This document shows, piece by piece, positions 44,323-50,746 of a stretch of DNA of 61,934 nucleotides. The notes under the pieces were generated by a model, which worked only from the letters and a program-made list of their open reading frames with translations, was not told the DNA's origin and made no database searches. The stretch is from a virus (taxonomy: Duplodnaviria > Caudoviricetes): IMG/VR virus record IMGVR_UViG_3300022309_000006, positions 1 to 61,934 of that record. One strand, given 5' to 3'. The translations under genes were made by a program, and so were the position numbers. Position 1 is the stretch's first letter, and each line of letters begins with the position of its first letter.

Positions 44323-44759
44323 TGCGGACGAACTACGGCGATCTGCCGCTGACGCTCGACCCGCGGACCGGCCGCGCCACCCTGGCGCCCGCGCGCCCCG
44401 TGGTGCCGGTGGCGCCGGGCCCTGTGCCCACGTTATCCCCAGGCGCCCGGTACCGTTCGAAGACCGAAGCCCGGTACGCCGGGCACCTCGAGGCCTGCCG
44501 GATGGCCGGGCAGATCCGGGAGGCCCGGTACGAAGCCCTCCGCTTCACCCTCGGGCCCCGCACGACCCTGACGCCCGATTTCTGCGTGGAGCGCCCGGAC
44601 CGGCAGCTCGAGCTGCACGAAGTCAAAGGTTTCGCCCGCGAGGACGCCTGGGTGAAGCTCAAGATCGCGGCCGTCCAGTGGCCCTGGTTCCGCTGGGTGC
44701 TGGTGACGTGGGACCGGCGCGCCGGGACCTGGCAGCTCCGGGAGGTGCCCCGGGGATGA
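44322..44759 (+). CDS. PD-(D/E)XK endonuclease (DUF1064-like)
   Basis: SKTEARY, TPDF, HEVKG, VKLK.AA. Confidence 0.82.
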   Translation: MRTNYGDLPLTLDPRTGRATLAPARPVVPVAPGPVPTLSPGARYRSKTEARYAGHLEACRMAGQIREARYEALRFTLGPRTTLTPDFCVERPDRQLELHEVKGFAREDAWVKLKIAAVQWPWFRWVLVTWDRRAGTWQLREVPRG

Positions 44760-45223
44760 GCCGCCACCGCATCAACCCGAAGGCCGGATGGGTGAGTCCC
44801 GCGGTCTTGCCGAAAGGCCCGAACGGCCGGACGCAATGCCGGTATTGCCAGGCCGAAGTCCCCACCGGGCGCCGGTCGTTTTGCAGCGACGTCTGCGTCC
44901 ACGAATGGAAGCTCCGGTCCGACCCCACCTACGTCCGCCGCCAGATTCACCGGCGGGACCGCGGCGTCTGCAGCGCGTGCGGCCTCGACACCGACCGCTT
45001 CAAGGAGGCGATCGCCCGGCTGCCTTACGGCCAACGCCTCCCGGCCCTGCTGGCCCGGGGCTTTAAGCAGCACGGCCACCTGTGGGAAGCCGATCACATC
45101 CAGCCGGTCGCCGACGGGGGCGGCGAATGCGGCCTCGAGAATTACCGAACCCTGTGCCTCCCGTGCCACAAACTCGCCACACGTCAGTGGCGACACACCC
45201 GTGCCTCAACCAAGGAGACCTAA
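44756..45223 (+). CDS. HNH endonuclease
   Basis: RDRGVC..C, WEADHI.PV..GGG...L.N.RTLC..CH. Confidence 0.9.
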   Translation: MSRHRINPKAGWVSPAVLPKGPNGRTQCRYCQAEVPTGRRSFCSDVCVHEWKLRSDPTYVRRQIHRRDRGVCSACGLDTDRFKEAIARLPYGQRLPALLARGFKQHGHLWEADHIQPVADGGGECGLENYRTLCLPCHKLATRQWRHTRASTKET

Positions 45224-45224
45224 C

Positions 45225-46166
45225 ATGACCGACACCGCCACCGTGCTCGACCCCGCAGACCTGCAGGACGACGCCCAGCGCGACACCCTGTGGAAGCTCA
45301 CCAAGGACCTGAAGAAAGCCGCCAAAACCCTGTCGGCCGACGAGGCCCGCTACCTGGTGGACCGCTACTACCAGCTGCAGAACGACCGGATCCGCGCCGA
45401 CGCGCAAGTCCGGGCCGCCGGAGACGCCGGAGAACCGAACGCCCTGCTGGGCTGGATGTCCGAGACCTCCTGGGCGATGGAGTGCGCGATCAAAAAAGCC
45501 CTGGACATTTATTCTGACCAACACGCGCCCGGCCGCTGGGCCAAGGCGCAGTACGGGATCGGGCCGGTGCTGTGCGCCGGGCTGCTGGCCCACATCGACA
45601 TCACCAAGGCCCCGACGGTGGGGAAAATCTGGCGATTTGCCGGGCTGGATCCAACCGTGACGTGGGAGAAGAAAACCAAGCGCCCGTGGAACGCCCGGCT
45701 CAAGACCCTGTGCTGGAAAATCGGCGATTCCTTCGTGAAATTCCACAACCGCGACGCCTGCGTCTACGGCAAGCTGTACGCGGAACGCAAACGCTACGAG
45801 ATCGACCGGAACCTGCGGGGGGAGCATGCCGAGACCGCCCGGCTGACCCTCGAGGCCAAGAAGTTCGACAAGAGCACCCCGACGTACCACGCCTACCAGG
45901 ACGGCAAGCTGCCCGACGGCCGGATCGAACTCCGGGCCCGCCGGTGGGCCGTCAAGCTGTTTTTAAGCGGCCTGCACGAAGCGATGTATTTTGACCGTTA
46001 CGGCACGCTGCCCCCCAAACCGTATGCGCTCGAGCACCTGGGGCACGCGCACTACATCGCGCCGCCGCACCTGGAGGAAATCCCCGGCTGGGCCGAGGCC
46101 CGCCGGAAGGCCGCGCCACTGCCCAACTCAACCGAACCGAGAGAGCCATCCGCATTCGATGAGTGA
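45225..46166 (+). CDS. tasA: TIGR-associated Tas protein, nuclease-less TasA type (IS110/Nop-like RNA-binding domain)
   Basis: Coiled coil YYQLQNDRIR, GIGPVLCAGLLA.ID...GKIWRFAGL.P, WNARLK.L, Y...Y..RK, RARRWAVKLFL; no N-terminal DEDD RuvC; directly followed by a 36-nt dual-repeat array. Confidence 0.8.
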   Translation: MTDTATVLDPADLQDDAQRDTLWKLTKDLKKAAKTLSADEARYLVDRYYQLQNDRIRADAQVRAAGDAGEPNALLGWMSETSWAMECAIKKALDIYSDQHAPGRWAKAQYGIGPVLCAGLLAHIDITKAPTVGKIWRFAGLDPTVTWEKKTKRPWNARLKTLCWKIGDSFVKFHNRDACVYGKLYAERKRYEIDRNLRGEHAETARLTLEAKKFDKSTPTYHAYQDGKLPDGRIELRARRWAVKLFLSGLHEAMYFDRYGTLPPKPYALEHLGHAHYIAPPHLEEIPGWAEARRKAAPLPNSTEPREPSAFDE

Positions 46167-48042
46167 CCCAGCGATCTCGATAGGACGGGGAGCAGGAGGG
46201 ACCCGAAGTAACGGATCGGACACGGACTGCGAGGGAGCCGACAGCGACGAGTGCCCCGTCGAACAGAAGCGACCCGTGATGAAGGATGGCGCGGATCAAT
46301 TGAGGGACCCGAGGGAACAGATCGGACGTGGTATTAGGAGGGAGCCTCCTGCGACGAGTGCCCCGTCGAGAGAGAGCGAACCGTTCAGGAAGATTGACCG
46401 AGCATGACGAGTGACCCGTAGGAAGCGATCGGACAGAAGAAGGAAGGGACCCAAGAGATTAGATCGGACGTGGCAGACGAGGGAGCCGACATCAAGGCGC
46501 GCACCGTAATACTTGAGCGAGCCAGGGGCACGTGAGGGGACCGATGCAAAAGAGCGAGCTGTCACGGGCGAGTGGACCGAAAGGATGGAGCGAGCCGCCG
46601 CAATAGAGTGGTCCGAACCACCAGAGTGCCCCGGGTCACTCTGGCAATACTAACACGGTTTATTAAAGCCGCAATGGAGTGACCCGAACCGCCAGAGTGC
46701 CCCGTACTCCTTGAGGGAGCCGTTACCGATGAGAGGGCCGAGTTTCGAGAGCGAGCCGCTGTCGGACGAGTGACCCGCCAGACCCGAGGAGTCCGAGAGA
46801 GACGAGGGAACCACGGGGTACGATAGAGCGCGTATCGAGAGTGACCCGCGCTAGCGGAGCAGCCCGTAGCACCTGAGGAAACCGGGCCTTCGGAGGGGAC
46901 CGATTCGCGTGAGTGAGCCGTCAGGTCCGATGCGATCGCAAGACAAGAGCGAACCGTCTTGAATGAGGGGGCCGCGACCACGGAGTGAGCCGCTGTCCGT
47001 GAGGGGACCGCGTGTTATGAGCGAACCGTTCAGGAAGATTGACCGAGCATCACGAGTGACCCAAGCTAGGAGAGTGCCCCGCGAGCAGCGAGGGAGCCGC
47101 CGTACAAGAGGGACGTGCAAGAAAAGAGCGAGCCGAGACGACGGAGCGCACCGTCGCCCGCGAGTGAACCGGGTTGAGTGAGTATGCCGGGGCTTGGAAG
47201 TGTAGCCACTTTACGGGAGCATCCCGTGACTCCAGAGCGAACCGTGACATGAAGCGCACCGCTTGGGACGAGTGACCCGCTCACGACGAGAGGCCCGGCC
47301 ATTGTGAGGGAACCGTCAGTAACGAGACCCCGAGCGTCCCGGTATTTGGGAGTGAGCCGAGATAACTGAGTCACCCTGTGAGAGAGCAGCGAGCCGATTC
47401 TGAGAAGCGCACCGCTGGAAGTGAGCGACCCGGCCAACCAGATCGGACGTGTGTCCAGAGGGAGTCGAGAGAAAAGAGCGCACCGTAGTAAAAGAACGAC
47501 CCGGACTAACAGGGAGCACCGGTACACATGAGGGACCCGAGAAAGAGCAGCGCACCGAGCTTGTAGAGGGAGCCGATGAGAGAGATCCCCGCGATTCTGA
47601 AGAGCGACCCATCGTAACCGTGAGCACCGAGAAACATGAGGGAGTCAGGACCGTTGAGCGCCCCGTCAAGACCGAACGAACCGGCCTAACAGGGAGCACC
47701 GCTAAACATGAGTGAGTTGATTTGCCTGAGCGCACCGGAGGAAAGGAACGACCCATGACGAGAGAGCGCCCCGTATCGACGAGGGAGTCGAGCGTTGAGA
47801 GCGCCCCGAAAAGTCCGAACGACCCCGGGGACAGAAGCGGACCGCGCTTGATGAGGGAGCCATGCACTGCGAGCACCCCGTACAGATTGAGCGAGCCGAA
47901 GACTAGGAGCGGACCGAATTTGATGAGGGAGCCATGCACTGCGAGCACCCCGTAGAGGTGGAGCGAGCCGTCGACCCTGAGTGGACCGCAAAGAGTAAGC
48001 GAGCCGAAAGAGTTGACCAACCCGAATGCTGAGAGCGCCCTA
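46143..48042 (+). ncRNA. TIGR-like tandem interspaced guide RNA array (~52 units of 35-36 nt)
   Basis: ~104 motifs at ~18-nt spacing, alternating GAGNGANCCR with GAGNG(C/G)NCCG or GATNGGACG, separated by 8-9 variable nt; no credible ORF. Confidence 0.85.
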
Positions 48043-48058
48043 ACGACAGGAGGACCCC

Positions 48059-48427
48059 ATGCCCGATGCAGCCCTGACCGAACACACCCACCGGATCACG
48101 CGCCAGCTGGAACGCCCGCTGACCGATGCCGAGCGCCTCGAGATTGGCGTGAACCTCTCCGAGGCCCTCGAGGCCGCGCAGGACGCGGAACGCCGCAAGC
48201 GCGAACTCGACGGCCGCCTCAAAAAAGACATCGATTATTACCGCGGGATGGCCGACGATCTGGCAGGCGTCCTACGGAAAGGCGTGCGTGAAGGCCCCGT
48301 CGAGGTGCTGGTGACCCGCGACTGGACGACCGGCCGGGTGACGTTCCACCGGGCCGACACCGGCGAGCAGATCGAGGAACGCGCCATGACGATCGAGGAA
48401 CGCCAAACCACCATCCCGGAGGCCTGA
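48059..48427 (+). CDS. hypothetical protein
   Basis: AGGAGG RBS; R.DTGE.IE.R.MT.EERQ motif. Confidence 0.75.
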   Translation: MPDAALTEHTHRITRQLERPLTDAERLEIGVNLSEALEAAQDAERRKRELDGRLKKDIDYYRGMADDLAGVLRKGVREGPVEVLVTRDWTTGRVTFHRADTGEQIEERAMTIEERQTTIPEA

Positions 48428-48429
48428 CG

Positions 48430-48837
48430 ATGCCGAGCCACAACCATGTGACCCTGATGGGCAACCTGACCCGCAACCCCGAACTGCGCTACACCCCGAA
48501 CGGTACCCCGGTGTGCAACCTGGGCCTCGCGGTCAACCGCCGGTACAAACAAGGCGACGACTTGAAAGAGGAAGTCGCGTTCATCGACATTGTGCTGTTC
48601 GGCAAGACCGGCGAGACCGCCGTGCAGTACCTGAGCAAGGGCGACTGCGCCCTGTTCGAAGGCCGCCTGCAGCAACGCCGCTGGGAGACCGAGGACCACC
48701 AGGTCCGGAGCAAGATCGAAGTGGTGGCCCACGGGATGACGTTCATCAAAACCAAATACCAACAGCAGGGCGCCGGGCCATCCAGCGGTGGCGCCGACCC
48801 GCCCCAGGAGCACCACGATGACGCCCCTTACGAGTAA
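48430..48837 (+). CDS. ssb: single-stranded DNA-binding protein
   Basis: N.V.LMGNLTRNPELRYTP.G, YLSKG, EGRLQ.RRWE, acidic tail DDAPYE. Confidence 0.95.
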   Translation: MPSHNHVTLMGNLTRNPELRYTPNGTPVCNLGLAVNRRYKQGDDLKEEVAFIDIVLFGKTGETAVQYLSKGDCALFEGRLQQRRWETEDHQVRSKIEVVAHGMTFIKTKYQQQGAGPSSGGADPPQEHHDDAPYE

Positions 48838-49261
48838 CCCGGCGGGCCGGTGGATTTACGTGCTGCACCCGTTCCGCGGGACCGGCCTACAGGGCGAACG
48901 CGAGAAGAACCGCGCGCGGATCGAGCTGATCTGCCGGGAGATCATGGGGCTGGGGCACGTCCCGCTGTCGCCCGTGCATTTTGCAGGCTTCCTGGACGAC
49001 ACCCACCCGCACGACCGCGCGCAGGCCTTCGCCCTCTGCCAGGCCTTGATCCGCCGGGCCGACGAGGTGTGGAGCTTTACGGTCGCGTCCCGCCGGTTCG
49101 ACCCGGTGGGCCTCCGCTACATCCACACCCCGGTGGTGAGCGCCGGGTGCGCCCGGGACCTCGAGGACGCCACGAAAGCCAACAAACCCATCATCTACTT
49201 CCACTACGAGGAAGGGGCCGGTGCCGTGCGCGATTTACGGCTGTCCCGTGGTGGTGTATAA
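48818..49261 (+). CDS. DUF4406/nucleoside deoxyribosyltransferase-like protein
   Basis: IYV.HPFRG...N, GHVP.SP, C..LI.RADEVW, SAGC..DLE.A...KPI. Confidence 0.7.
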   Translation: MTPLTSNPAGRWIYVLHPFRGTGLQGEREKNRARIELICREIMGLGHVPLSPVHFAGFLDDTHPHDRAQAFALCQALIRRADEVWSFTVASRRFDPVGLRYIHTPVVSAGCARDLEDATKANKPIIYFHYEEGAGAVRDLRLSRGGV

Positions 49262-49315
49262 GCCTGCGGGAACATGGGGCAAACGCCCCGCGTTCTACGT
49301 GGAACAGGAGTAGCG

Positions 49316-50746
49316 ATGCCAACCAAGCGCCCCGCCACGAAGTCCCGTGCCCCGATCGCCCGGCCCGAGCCCGGCGAACAGATCGCTCCCTTCGACATTG
49401 CCCAGCTGCAGCTGGACCCGAAAAACGCCCGCGCCCACGGCGATCGAGACATCAAGGCCATCATGGCGTCGATCCGCCAGTGGGGCTGGACCAACCCGAT
49501 CATCGTGCGGGCCGGAACCACCCAGGTGGTGTGCGGCCACGGCCGCGTCCAAGCTGCCATCCGGCTGGGCCTCAAGACGGTCCCGGGGATCAGCCGGGTG
49601 TTTGCCACCGACGCCGACGCCAAGGCCTACGCGATCGCCGACAACCGGACGGCCGAGCTGTCGGCCTGGGACCTGCCGAACCTCAAGGATTCCTTGACGG
49701 AACTCGAGGGCCAGGGCTACGACATCGCGTTGACCGGCTGGACGGTCGACGAACTCCAGAAGATGCTCGACTTTGACAGCGAGCCCGAGCACGACCCCGA
49801 CACCCTGCCGGTCGTGGGCGGCCCGCCGGTCGCCAAGCCCGGCGAGCTGTGGTGTCTCGGGGACCACCGGATCCTCTGCGGCGATGCCCAGGACCCCGCG
49901 GTCTGGTTCCGGCTGATGGGCGGCCGGAAAGCCCACGCGATCTTTACCGACCCGCCCTATGGCGTGGCCTATGAAGCCCAAAGCGGCAAATACGACGCGA
50001 TCAAGAACGATAGTCTCCGGCACGGCGCCCTCGCGGAATTCCTCTGGAGGACCTTTCGCAACCTCGTGCAGCACGCCGAGGACACCGCCGCGTTCTACAT
50101 TTGGCACGCCTCGAGCACCCGGCAGGACTTCAGCCATGCGCTGATAAACGCCGGGTTGACCGAACAGCAATACCTGATCTGGGTGAAGCCCGCGCTCGTG
50201 CTGGGCCACGACGACTACCAATGGGCCCATGAGCCCTGTTTCTACGCCGCCAAGTCCGGCCACAAACCGGCCTGGCACGGAGACCGGAGCCAACCGACCA
50301 CCTGGCGGTTCAGCCCCGTGAGCCCCGAGGGCATCATGGCGAGCGTCGGCCGCGGCCTGACGCTGCTGCACGGCCCCGAGACCCTCCACCTGACGACCGA
50401 CAGCCCCAAGACCAAGAAAACCCGGACCGTCCGGGTCCCCGAGGACGGCCGCCCCGTCCTGATCGACATCGGCAACCAGCCACACCACGACTGCTGGGAA
50501 GTCTCCCGGGACCACAACGCCGAGCACCCCACCCAAAAGCCCGTCGCCCTCGCGGTCCGGGCGTTGCGGAACAGCACCCAGTACGGCGAGCTGGTGCTCG
50601 ACGCCTTCCTGGGCAGCGGCACCACCCTGATGGGCGCCGAGATCCTGGGCCGGACCTGCTACGCCACCGAAATGGAGCCGAAGTACGTGGACCTGGCGGT
50701 GCGCCGGTGGGAGCTGTTCACCAAGAAGAAAGCCGAACGCGCATGA
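49316..50746 (+). CDS. ParB-like N-terminal domain fused to N4/N6 DNA methyltransferase
   Basis: P.NAR.H, SI..WGW.NPI, GHGR, IADNR; TDPPYG, HPTQKP, LDAFLGSGTT. Confidence 0.92.
   Translation: MPTKRPATKSRAPIARPEPGEQIAPFDIAQLQLDPKNARAHGDRDIKAIMASIRQWGWTNPIIVRAGTTQVVCGHGRVQAAIRLGLKTVPGISRVFATDADAKAYAIADNRTAELSAWDLPNLKDSLTELEGQGYDIALTGWTVDELQKMLDFDSEPEHDPDTLPVVGGPPVAKPGELWCLGDHRILCGDAQDPAVWFRLMGGRKAHAIFTDPPYGVAYEAQSGKYDAIKNDSLRHGALAEFLWRTFRNLVQHAEDTAAFYIWHASSTRQDFSHALINAGLTEQQYLIWVKPALVLGHDDYQWAHEPCFYAAKSGHKPAWHGDRSQPTTWRFSPVSPEGIMASVGRGLTLLHGPETLHLTTDSPKTKKTRTVRVPEDGRPVLIDIGNQPHHDCWEVSRDHNAEHPTQKPVALAVRALRNSTQYGELVLDAFLGSGTTLMGAEILGRTCYATEMEPKYVDLAVRRWELFTKKKAERA

Follow-up and report, generated by a model that had tools for sequence, protein, structure and literature searches.

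The contig IMGVR_UViG_3300022309_000006, a 61,934-nt virus record of the Caudoviricetes, carries a dual-repeat TIGR array next to a tasA gene, and the loop repeats of this array are not all of one kind: most are 10 nt long, and a minority, here called GAT loops, are mostly 9 nt long and mostly give units of 35 nt rather than 36 nt. The question raised by this locus is whether one phage array encodes two kinds of guide, or a single kind of guide written in two ways. A preliminary description had favoured the former, proposing a divergent TIGR subtype with two guide classes that might be single-spacer or differently loaded. We analysed the whole stretch, a single 61,934-bp contig called the window throughout. 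We consider it probable, at roughly 0.7, that the GAT units are ordinary dual-spacer guides with a second, pair-compensated loop dialect in a phage TIGR array. This reading builds on the anatomy of the array, on the covariation within it and on a sister lineage in which this loop design is the usual one, and it would make 35-nt and 36-nt guides functionally equivalent.

A 50-unit array with a minority of GAT loops

46161-48042, plus strand: dual-repeat TIGR array of 50 units, established by Viterbi parse, unit table, logos and covariation
45225-46166, plus strand: tasA, whose 313-aa Tas product has a Nop-type RNA-binding fold and lacks a nuclease domain
46161-46478, plus strand: tasA-proximal block of nine units, of which seven contain 9-nt GAT loops (at 46179, 46214, 46285, 46320, 46392, 46427 and 46462)

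The stretch at 46161-48042 is a phage-borne dual-repeat TIGR array beside a nuclease-less TasA. Parsing by dynamic programming (Viterbi) of the stretch from 46139 to 48042 located 106 repeat positions at a step of 18 nt, which were grouped into 50 units, each made up, in this order, of an edge repeat (10 nt), spacer A (8 nt), a loop repeat (9-10 nt) and spacer B (8 nt). The edges have the form GAGNGANCC(G/A), with the pattern G-A-G-N-G-A-N-C-C-(G/A), and end in G in 37 of the 50 units, in A in 10, in C in 2 and in T in 1. Edges and loops differ in phase, position 6 being A in 49/50 edges compared to 3/40 of the 10-nt loops. Units are 36 nt long in 35 cases, 35 nt in 11, 37 nt in three and 44 nt in one, with spacers of 8 nt at A in 46/50 units and at B in 47/50. 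The stretch flagged in the preliminary description, which ended at 47457, is the tasA-proximal two thirds of this array, which extends to 48042; its account of how the spacers are bounded was borne out, the flanking bases being CC(G/A) and (G/A)AG.

The array contains at least eight loop families, among them GAGCGCACCG, GAGTGCCCCG, GAGCGCCCCG, GAGGGGACCG, GGGAGCACCG, GAGCACCCCG, GAG(C/T)GGACCG and the GAT family, and the last is the sole family that alters both the length and the box pair. A distinct, non-random class of GAT loops is thus real, as had been proposed, whereas a simple division into two loop classes is not. The GAT loops are as follows.

46179, plus strand: GAT loop GATAGGACG
46214, 46320, 46427, 46462 and 47441, plus strand: GAT loop GATCGGAC, five copies
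46285, plus strand: GAT loop GATGGCGCG, 9 nt
46392 and 47037-47045, plus strand: GAT loop GATTGACCG
46822-46830, plus strand: GAT loop GATAGAGCG, 9 nt
46929-46938, plus strand: GAT loop GATGCGATCG, 10 nt
47441-47449, plus strand: GAT loop GATCGGACG, 9 nt, the last of the five copies listed above
47584-47593, plus strand: GAT loop GATCCCCGCG, 10 nt, with U3:G8

The nine GAT loops previously reported (GATCGGAC, GATAGGACG, GATTGACCG and GATAGAGCG) were all correctly placed, and the parse added three more, at 46285, 46929 and 47584, so that 12 of the 50 loops are of this family, ten of 9 nt and two of 10 nt. All 12 fall on the loop parity of the 106-position repeat chain. As had been noticed, they mostly give 35-nt units: nine of the ten 9-nt GAT loops do so, and the tenth (unit 46302) is restored to 36 nt by a 9-nt spacer B. 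Conversely, a 9-nt GAT loop accounts for nine of the eleven 35-nt units, and a 7-nt spacer for the remaining two. Their reported enrichment near tasA is likewise evident, with GAT loops in 7/9 of the first units compared to 5/41 of the remainder (Fisher p = 2.3e-4).

The most frequent form, GATCGGAC, occurs five times when both strands of the whole window are counted, no more than chance would give (mean of 4.35 in shuffles), and all five copies lie inside the 1.9-kb array, on the plus strand and in loop phase. These five identical loops are flanked by 16-nt spacer pairs that differ mutually at 8 positions or more.

Covarying positions at the edges and in the loop

The edges of this array covary with one another. 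Position 7 of each edge and position 4 of the next (E_i[7]:E_i+1[4]) form a Watson-Crick pair in 46/50 units (G:C 20, C:G 17, A:U 9), with two G:U pairs and two mismatches, compared to a mean of 18.0 and a maximum of 34 in 100,000 permutations and to 14/50 when both positions were taken from the same edge. Controls at other offsets, run on an earlier parity of the chain, gave 11 to 20 pairs of 51-53. In a separate tool count of 49 units, which omitted the 44-nt unit, the figures were GC 20, CG 17, AU 8, GU 2 and other 2, and the covariation score of the closing pair was 0.518 compared to 0.155 in shuffles, a value reached in 0/500 of these. Positions 4 and 7 are complementary between consecutive edges and not within one edge. 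Because the closing pair joins consecutive edges, every unit has a closing pair of its own, and each edge is a chimera that serves two neighbours. This covariation lends in-silico support to the predicted ends of the tigRNA in a TasA clade that is without a structure, and offers a simple means of telling edge from loop repeats when an array is phased. At the neighbouring box pair of the edges, E_i[8]:E_i+1[3], 45 units have C:G, four have U:A (GAGGGAGTCG followed by GAACGA...) and one has a mismatch.

Within the loop, we counted the corresponding pair by length-aware indexing, position 3 being matched with position L-2. Across the 50 units this pair is G:C in 36, U:A in six, U:G in three and unpaired in five. 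A T at position 3 goes together with a partner other than C in 10/12 T3 loops compared to 1/38 of the others (Fisher p = 6.7e-8). The GAT loop can accordingly be written as GA-U-CGG-A-CG, in which a putative U3:A7 or U3:G7 pair over a 3-nt apical loop would replace the G3:C8 of GA-G-NNNN-C-CG. An apical loop of three bases in place of four makes the loop repeat one base shorter, giving the 35-nt guide.

The edge closing pair is Watson-Crick in every one of the 12 GAT units. In 11 of these the loop lies between two 8-nt spacers, the twelfth having a 9-nt spacer B. The GAT units are therefore dual-spacer units, and the suggestion that they might encode single-spacer guides is not supported.

A sister lineage in which the GAT loop is standard

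We searched metagenome contigs with a GATCGGACR-unit pattern and obtained 31 loci, 25 of which were single chance matches without periodicity; the other six belong to three contigs with arrays. The same scan of viral contigs returned 0 matches. One of the three, represented by L030 and L031, is a close variant of the window phage. The remaining two come from one metagenome and constitute a sister lineage: Ga0126379_10000967 (L019/L020/L029), whose TasA is 55% identical to that of the window and corresponds to row 613 of Table S1 in Faure et al. (2025), and Ga0126379_10009306 (L041), the retrieved part of which contains no tas gene. In this lineage the edges are GAGCGAGCCA, the standard loop is GATCGGACA with 21 occurrences, and 32 of 41 distinct units are 35 nt long. 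The pair of loop position 3 with position L-2 is U:A in 37/41 units, including five loops of 10 nt. Since U:A is retained in these longer loops, length varies in the apical loop and not in the pair, and for this reason a gap in the apical loop, rather than in box C, is the placement we favour for the 9-nt loops of the window. The sister locus on Ga0126379_10000967 thus resembles the window in its GAGCGAGCCA edges, 8-nt spacers, 9-nt GAT loop GATCGGACA and 35-nt units, and differs from it in that GAT is nearly the sole loop and the edges are uniform, whereas in the window 12/50 GAT loops are mixed with 10-nt GAG loops between variable edges.

A mixture of box pairs within one guide is found elsewhere as well. 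At L012:5250-6230, GATCGAGACG edges (U:A) are combined with AAGAGAACCG loops (G:C) in units of 36-41 nt; this array is a mirror image of the GAT units of the window, with strong length heterogeneity. Mixed boxes and units other than 36 nt therefore recur in the clade. Read in this way, the array, the sister lineage and L012 indicate that 35-nt guides are likely to exist, that the box C/D "motif" may really be a base pair for which G:C, U:A or A:U is possible, and that one protein apparently accepts both box forms.

The comparison with relatives also bears on the proposal of a divergent TIGR subtype, which we abandon. The CCG...GAG arrangement is common to L001, L007 and L010 (TasA ~45-55% identical), whose edges are GAGCGAGCCG, whose loops are GAG(A/G)GCACCG or GAGATACCCG and whose spacers are 8 nt; the edges of L009, L011 and L013 use CCA, so that CCA and CCG alternate among relatives just as they do among edges within the array. 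The units of L007 measure 36 nt in 19 cases, 37 nt in seven, and 35 nt and 34 nt in one each. Compared with the motifs in Table S1 of Faure et al. (2025), the edge repeat of this array differs from that of SpTasH, AAGCGAGCCA, at its first and last base alone. The TG...CCA boxes with which the array had at first been contrasted are the TasR form, since TaTasR has TGCGAGCCA / TGAAACCCA and SpTasH has AAGCGAGCCA / AAGACAACCA. Moreover, the TasA proteins of L010, L002 and the sister contig appear in that table, and the clade is thus already catalogued.

Covariation of the closing pair within single arrays extends to low-GC relatives. It is Watson-Crick in 39/42 units of L002 (permutation mean 19.8; reached in 0/5000) and in 26/28 and 16/17 units of two L006 arrays. 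In these relatives (L002:2390-3940, L006:1835-2900 and L006:5210-5860), box C is CTG, TTG or GTG, position 3 varies freely, and the 3:8 box pair is not conserved while the 7:4 closing pair is. Recognition of the boxes in this sub-clade may differ.

Natural variants differ in whole units and in spacers

Natural variants of the array were taken from contigs of other public runs aligned to the region and from the full variant contig L030. One variant has a 141-nt deletion (46338-46478) that removes exactly four units between edges alike in their first nine bases, and another has a 72-nt deletion (47848-47919) that removes exactly two units, corresponding to one copy of a 72-nt tandem duplication. 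Of the differences listed for the run contigs, 24/29 lie in spacers (p = 2.7e-5). Over 2965 nt, L030 and the window disagree at 40 sites, with 30 in spacers (4.0% per nt), six in repeats (0.65%), two in 442 positions of tasA and two in 641 positions downstream, so that repeats and flanking genes differ at 0.3-0.65% per nt. The L030 differences are clustered, three spacers having 3-4 changes each.

These results show that the spacers are at least unconstrained. The excess of spacer differences over the estimated synonymous rate, ~2.7-fold and calculated from very few coding differences, at most suggests diversifying selection or spacer replacement. In addition, four pairs of units are diverged duplicates that share a loop variant, with spacer distances of 1, 3, 3 and 5 of 16, where about 0.4 pairs would be expected at a distance of 5 or less. 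The unit at 46374-46408 differs from that at 47019-47053 by 1/16 spacer bases, both having the GATTGACCG loop; the units at 47494 and 47674 and those at 47853 and 47925 are further duplicates, the three listed pairs differing at 1-3/16 spacer bases. This suggests that new guides can arise by duplication of a unit followed by spacer change. Within the GAT loops themselves, one natural variant (47591 G->A) turns the U3:G8 pair of the loop at 47584 into U3:A8.

The predicted guide and its alternatives

In the mechanism that we propose, the array would be transcribed together with or after tasA, and the transcript would be cut inside every edge repeat, presumably by TasA itself, given its P-Y...G-H motif at residues 266-274 and the mechanism reported by Xu (2026), in which dual-repeat Tas proteins process RNA with a catalytic Tyr/His (Y/H) pair in a C-terminal loop of the Nop domain. 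Each product would begin with the 3' half of one edge and end with the 5' half of the following one, with the 8-nt spacer A, the loop and the 8-nt spacer B in between. Such a guide, of 35 or 36 nt, would have its ends closed by two base pairs and its loop by one, and would be held by a TasA dimer. The complex would then bind 16-bp sites across both DNA strands and repress without cutting; TasA has been described as a repressor in the case of MbTasA (Xu 2026, preprint). Composite 16-nt targets, built as spacer A plus the reverse complement of spacer B and in the opposite order with gaps of 0-2 nt, had 0 matches at one mismatch or fewer in the contig outside the array, and matches at two mismatches occurred at shuffle level.

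Several observations pull in the opposite direction. Three of the 12 GAT loops, GATTGACCG twice (in one duplicated unit) and GATGCGATCG, are unpaired at 3:(L-2). The MAFFT alignment places its 1-nt gap in box C, so that all 9-nt GAT loops appear unpaired and 13 loops in total are scored "not paired"; this placement leads the tool count to understate loop pairing. The combination of GAG...CCG edges with GAU...ACG loops breaks the rule by which edge and loop boxes match, making a functional difference possible, and the 35-nt units contrast with the description of dual-repeat guides as uniformly 36 nt (Xu 2026). The Y/H processing dyad of TasA, with a putative equivalent of SpTasH H296, is proposed from the motif PYALEHLGH. 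A scan of 44500-48500 gave 0 promoter-like sites and one terminator-like element, on the minus strand inside tasA; no terminator follows the truncated edge of the array at 48033, and the next open reading frame (ORF) starts at 48059. Among the listed runs that contain the stretch, none is recorded as RNA, and transcription, the cut site and the 35-nt species are all inferred.

The alternative that fares best is that the GAT units form a functionally distinct guide class, whose non-matching boxes and 1-nt shorter tether lead to unequal binding by the two protomers or to altered spacing of the half-sites. This corresponds to the differently loaded guides of the preliminary description. According to Faure et al. 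(2025), edge and loop box motifs "almost always" match or covary; in the window they do so in 38/50 units and fail to in the 12 GAT units, where the edge is GAG...CCG and the loop GAT...ACG or GCG. The wording itself means that the rule is not an absolute criterion. The idea also draws on the conserved sequence of the five identical loops and their clustering at the tasA-proximal end, on the geometry of TasR, which tolerates gaps of only 0-2 bp between half-sites (Faure et al. 2025), and on the asymmetric target engagement reported for SpTasH and PlTasA (Guan 2026, preprint). However, the same loop is essentially the only one in the sister lineage and serves there as a general-purpose design, the box pair is compensated rather than lost, the two classes do not differ in spacer lengths or in the edge closing pair, and the apical loop of TasR makes no base-specific contacts (Faure et al. 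2025). We regard a distinct class as rather unlikely; if it were true, the phage would obtain two kinds of guide from one array.

A broader version of this idea, which we judge unlikely, holds that one TasA reads two scaffolds, a 36-nt form with matching G:C boxes and a 35-nt form with a U:A box and a triloop, that act differently, for instance through asymmetric protomer loading or different half-site spacing, and that the units are autonomous modules, each bounded at the processing site and provided with its own closing pair, whose spacers change in situ at a far higher rate than the flanking sequence. Were this the case, it would bear on how TIGR arrays gain guides.

Alternatively, the GAT loops could be decayed repeats with a damaged box C, and their units dead or dying guides. 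Box C is indeed ACG or GCG instead of CCG with one base gone, 3/12 GAT loops are without the pair, other degenerate spots occur in the array at 46634-46676, 47198 and 47324, and three GAT units are among the four units missing from one natural variant. Decay would not, however, yield five identical copies of GATCGGAC between unrelated spacers, nor the association of T3 with a non-C partner; variant contigs with changes in the neighbouring spacers keep the GAT loops at 46179, 46214 and 46285 intact, and the same loop is standard in two other contigs, all of which makes decay very unlikely.

Finally, an action of the motif in the DNA itself, such as the provision of GATC sites to be methylated or restricted by the phage ParB-methyltransferase, is hardly credible: GATC is present in five loops and a ParB_N + N6_N4 methylase gene lies at 49274-50746, but the array has fewer GATC sites (4.8 per kb) than the remainder of the contig does (8.5 per kb), a density on which the GATC/Dam idea was rejected, 5/12 GAT loops are not GATC, and the phase-locked position and covariation point to RNA.

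The TasA protein

The product of 45225-46166 is designated TasA because it is without a nuclease domain: a Pfam scan of the protein revealed no nuclease family (HNH or RuvC), the sole match being a sub-threshold one to Transposase_20. Searches of the PDB with phmmer matched TaTasR (9mty, E = 2.5e-14) and SpTasH (21kl, E = 2.6e-7). The AlphaFold (AF2) model, built from a 13-sequence alignment, is all-helical with a predicted local distance difference test score (pLDDT) of 83.4, and its fold matches the Nop core of TasH and TasR by Foldseek, where the top matches were TasH (9w04, E = 2.6e-7) and TasR (9mty), followed by IS110-family recombinases; E values for the TasH-tigRNA complexes and TasR ranged from 2.6e-7 to 8e-6. 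The motif PYALEHLGH occupies residues 266-274, with P266 and H274 invariant in 13/13 sequences, and the loop that bears it is of low confidence in the model. No relative was confirmed in the genome-contig collection, and cultured phages yielded one weak match, in Microcystis phage Mvi-JY20 (31% identity, with 40% of the query covered).

The stop codon of tasA, TGA (46164-46166), sits within the first full edge repeat GAGTGACCCA (46161-46170), and as a result the coding sequence and the array overlap.

Array irregularities and neighbouring genes

44756-45223, plus strand: ORF for a ZRANB3-like HNH endonuclease (Pfam HNH, E = 2.1e-7; PDB 5mkw, E = 1.7e-14)
46634-46676, plus strand: irregular AT-rich insert of 43 nt that breaks the edge/loop phase
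46749-46767, plus strand: orphan half unit, an edge and a 9-nt spacer, that restores the phase
47324-47331, plus strand: extra 8-nt partial repeat GAGACCCC within the 44-nt unit
48033, plus strand: 3'-truncated terminal edge GAGCGCCC at the end of the array
49274-50746: ParB_N + N6_N4 methylase gene

Two phase slips interrupt the array, one at the 46634-46676 insert and one at the 46749-46767 orphan half unit. The insert gave no promoter-like match, and no difference is listed for it in the four variant contigs that span it wholly or partly. The array of the relative L010 also ends in a truncated edge, which is followed there by a terminator hairpin. A search of 45900-48200 against Rfam gave no match at E up to 1.

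The HNH ORF ends 1 nt ahead of the tasA ATG, in another frame and unfused, and looks translationally coupled to tasA. In TasH, by definition, the Nop protein carries an HNH domain as an N-terminal fusion, and here the HNH is a separate ORF. We considered whether it could be the partner of a split TasH, and rejected the idea: its best PDB match is the HNH of ZRANB3 rather than TasH, and by tblastn no HNH ORF lies beside tas in any of 13 related viral loci. The genes around the array are of phage type, including DUF1064, the HNH endonuclease, a single-stranded DNA-binding protein (SSB) and the ParB-N6/N4 methylase. On the 3' side of the array (48059-50746) we found a 122-aa ORF of no assigned family, the SSB gene and a fusion of ParB_N with an N6/N4 DNA methylase, which differs from the TasParB of Faure et al.

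Relation to described TIGR-Tas systems

Among described systems, the window array resembles that of SpTIGR-TasH from Salicola phage CGphi29, which has AAGCGAGCCA / AAGACAACCA repeats and 8-nt spacers (Faure et al. 2025, Table S1). Both are phage-borne dual-repeat arrays with 10-nt repeats, 8-nt spacers and a matching Tas fold, and the SpTIGR-TasH edge AAGCGAGCCA is close to the GAGCGAGCCG found here, with an identical box D (AG) and inner CGAG and a box C of CCx. They differ in that TasH has a fused N-terminal HNH, whereas the Tas protein of the window is without a nuclease and the adjacent HNH is separate and unrelated-looking, and in that the TasH loop is uniformly AAGACAACCA, whereas the loops here are heterogeneous, include the 9-nt GAT form and have a box C that ends mostly in G.

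The TaTasR TIGR (PDB 9mty) shares a box D/box C pair that closes the repeats, a tetraloop-like loop, an inner CGAG and an extra pair that joins separate copies of the edge. The TasR structure shows a box C/D pair in both repeats and one extra edge pair (Faure et al. 2025). In contrast to the window, TaTasR has UG...CCA boxes, repeats and spacers of 9 nt and a RuvC nuclease. The extra pair covaries between arrays in the published cases, whereas here it varies among the units of one array. FpTasA (Faure et al. 2025) and MbTasA (Xu 2026) are, as here, solo Nop-domain Tas proteins with a dual-spacer guide, and DNA binding or transcriptional repression would be expected of the window protein, which is known from its sequence and a model. 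Our literature search, whose scope did not take in the Faure supplementary figures or TIGRSafari, returned nothing on covariation within an array or on 35-nt dual-repeat guides.

The TIGR-Tas family, whose members bind DNA under the guidance of RNA, was described only recently, and the rules of its arrays are still forming. The natural variants of this phage provide first hints on array turnover, with whole units gained or lost between identical edges and differences centred on the spacers. The kind of system at this locus is unchanged by our results, which instead refine the grammar available to annotation tools and guide designers, in which a 9-nt loop with a U:A pair would probably stand beside the 10-nt loop with G:C.

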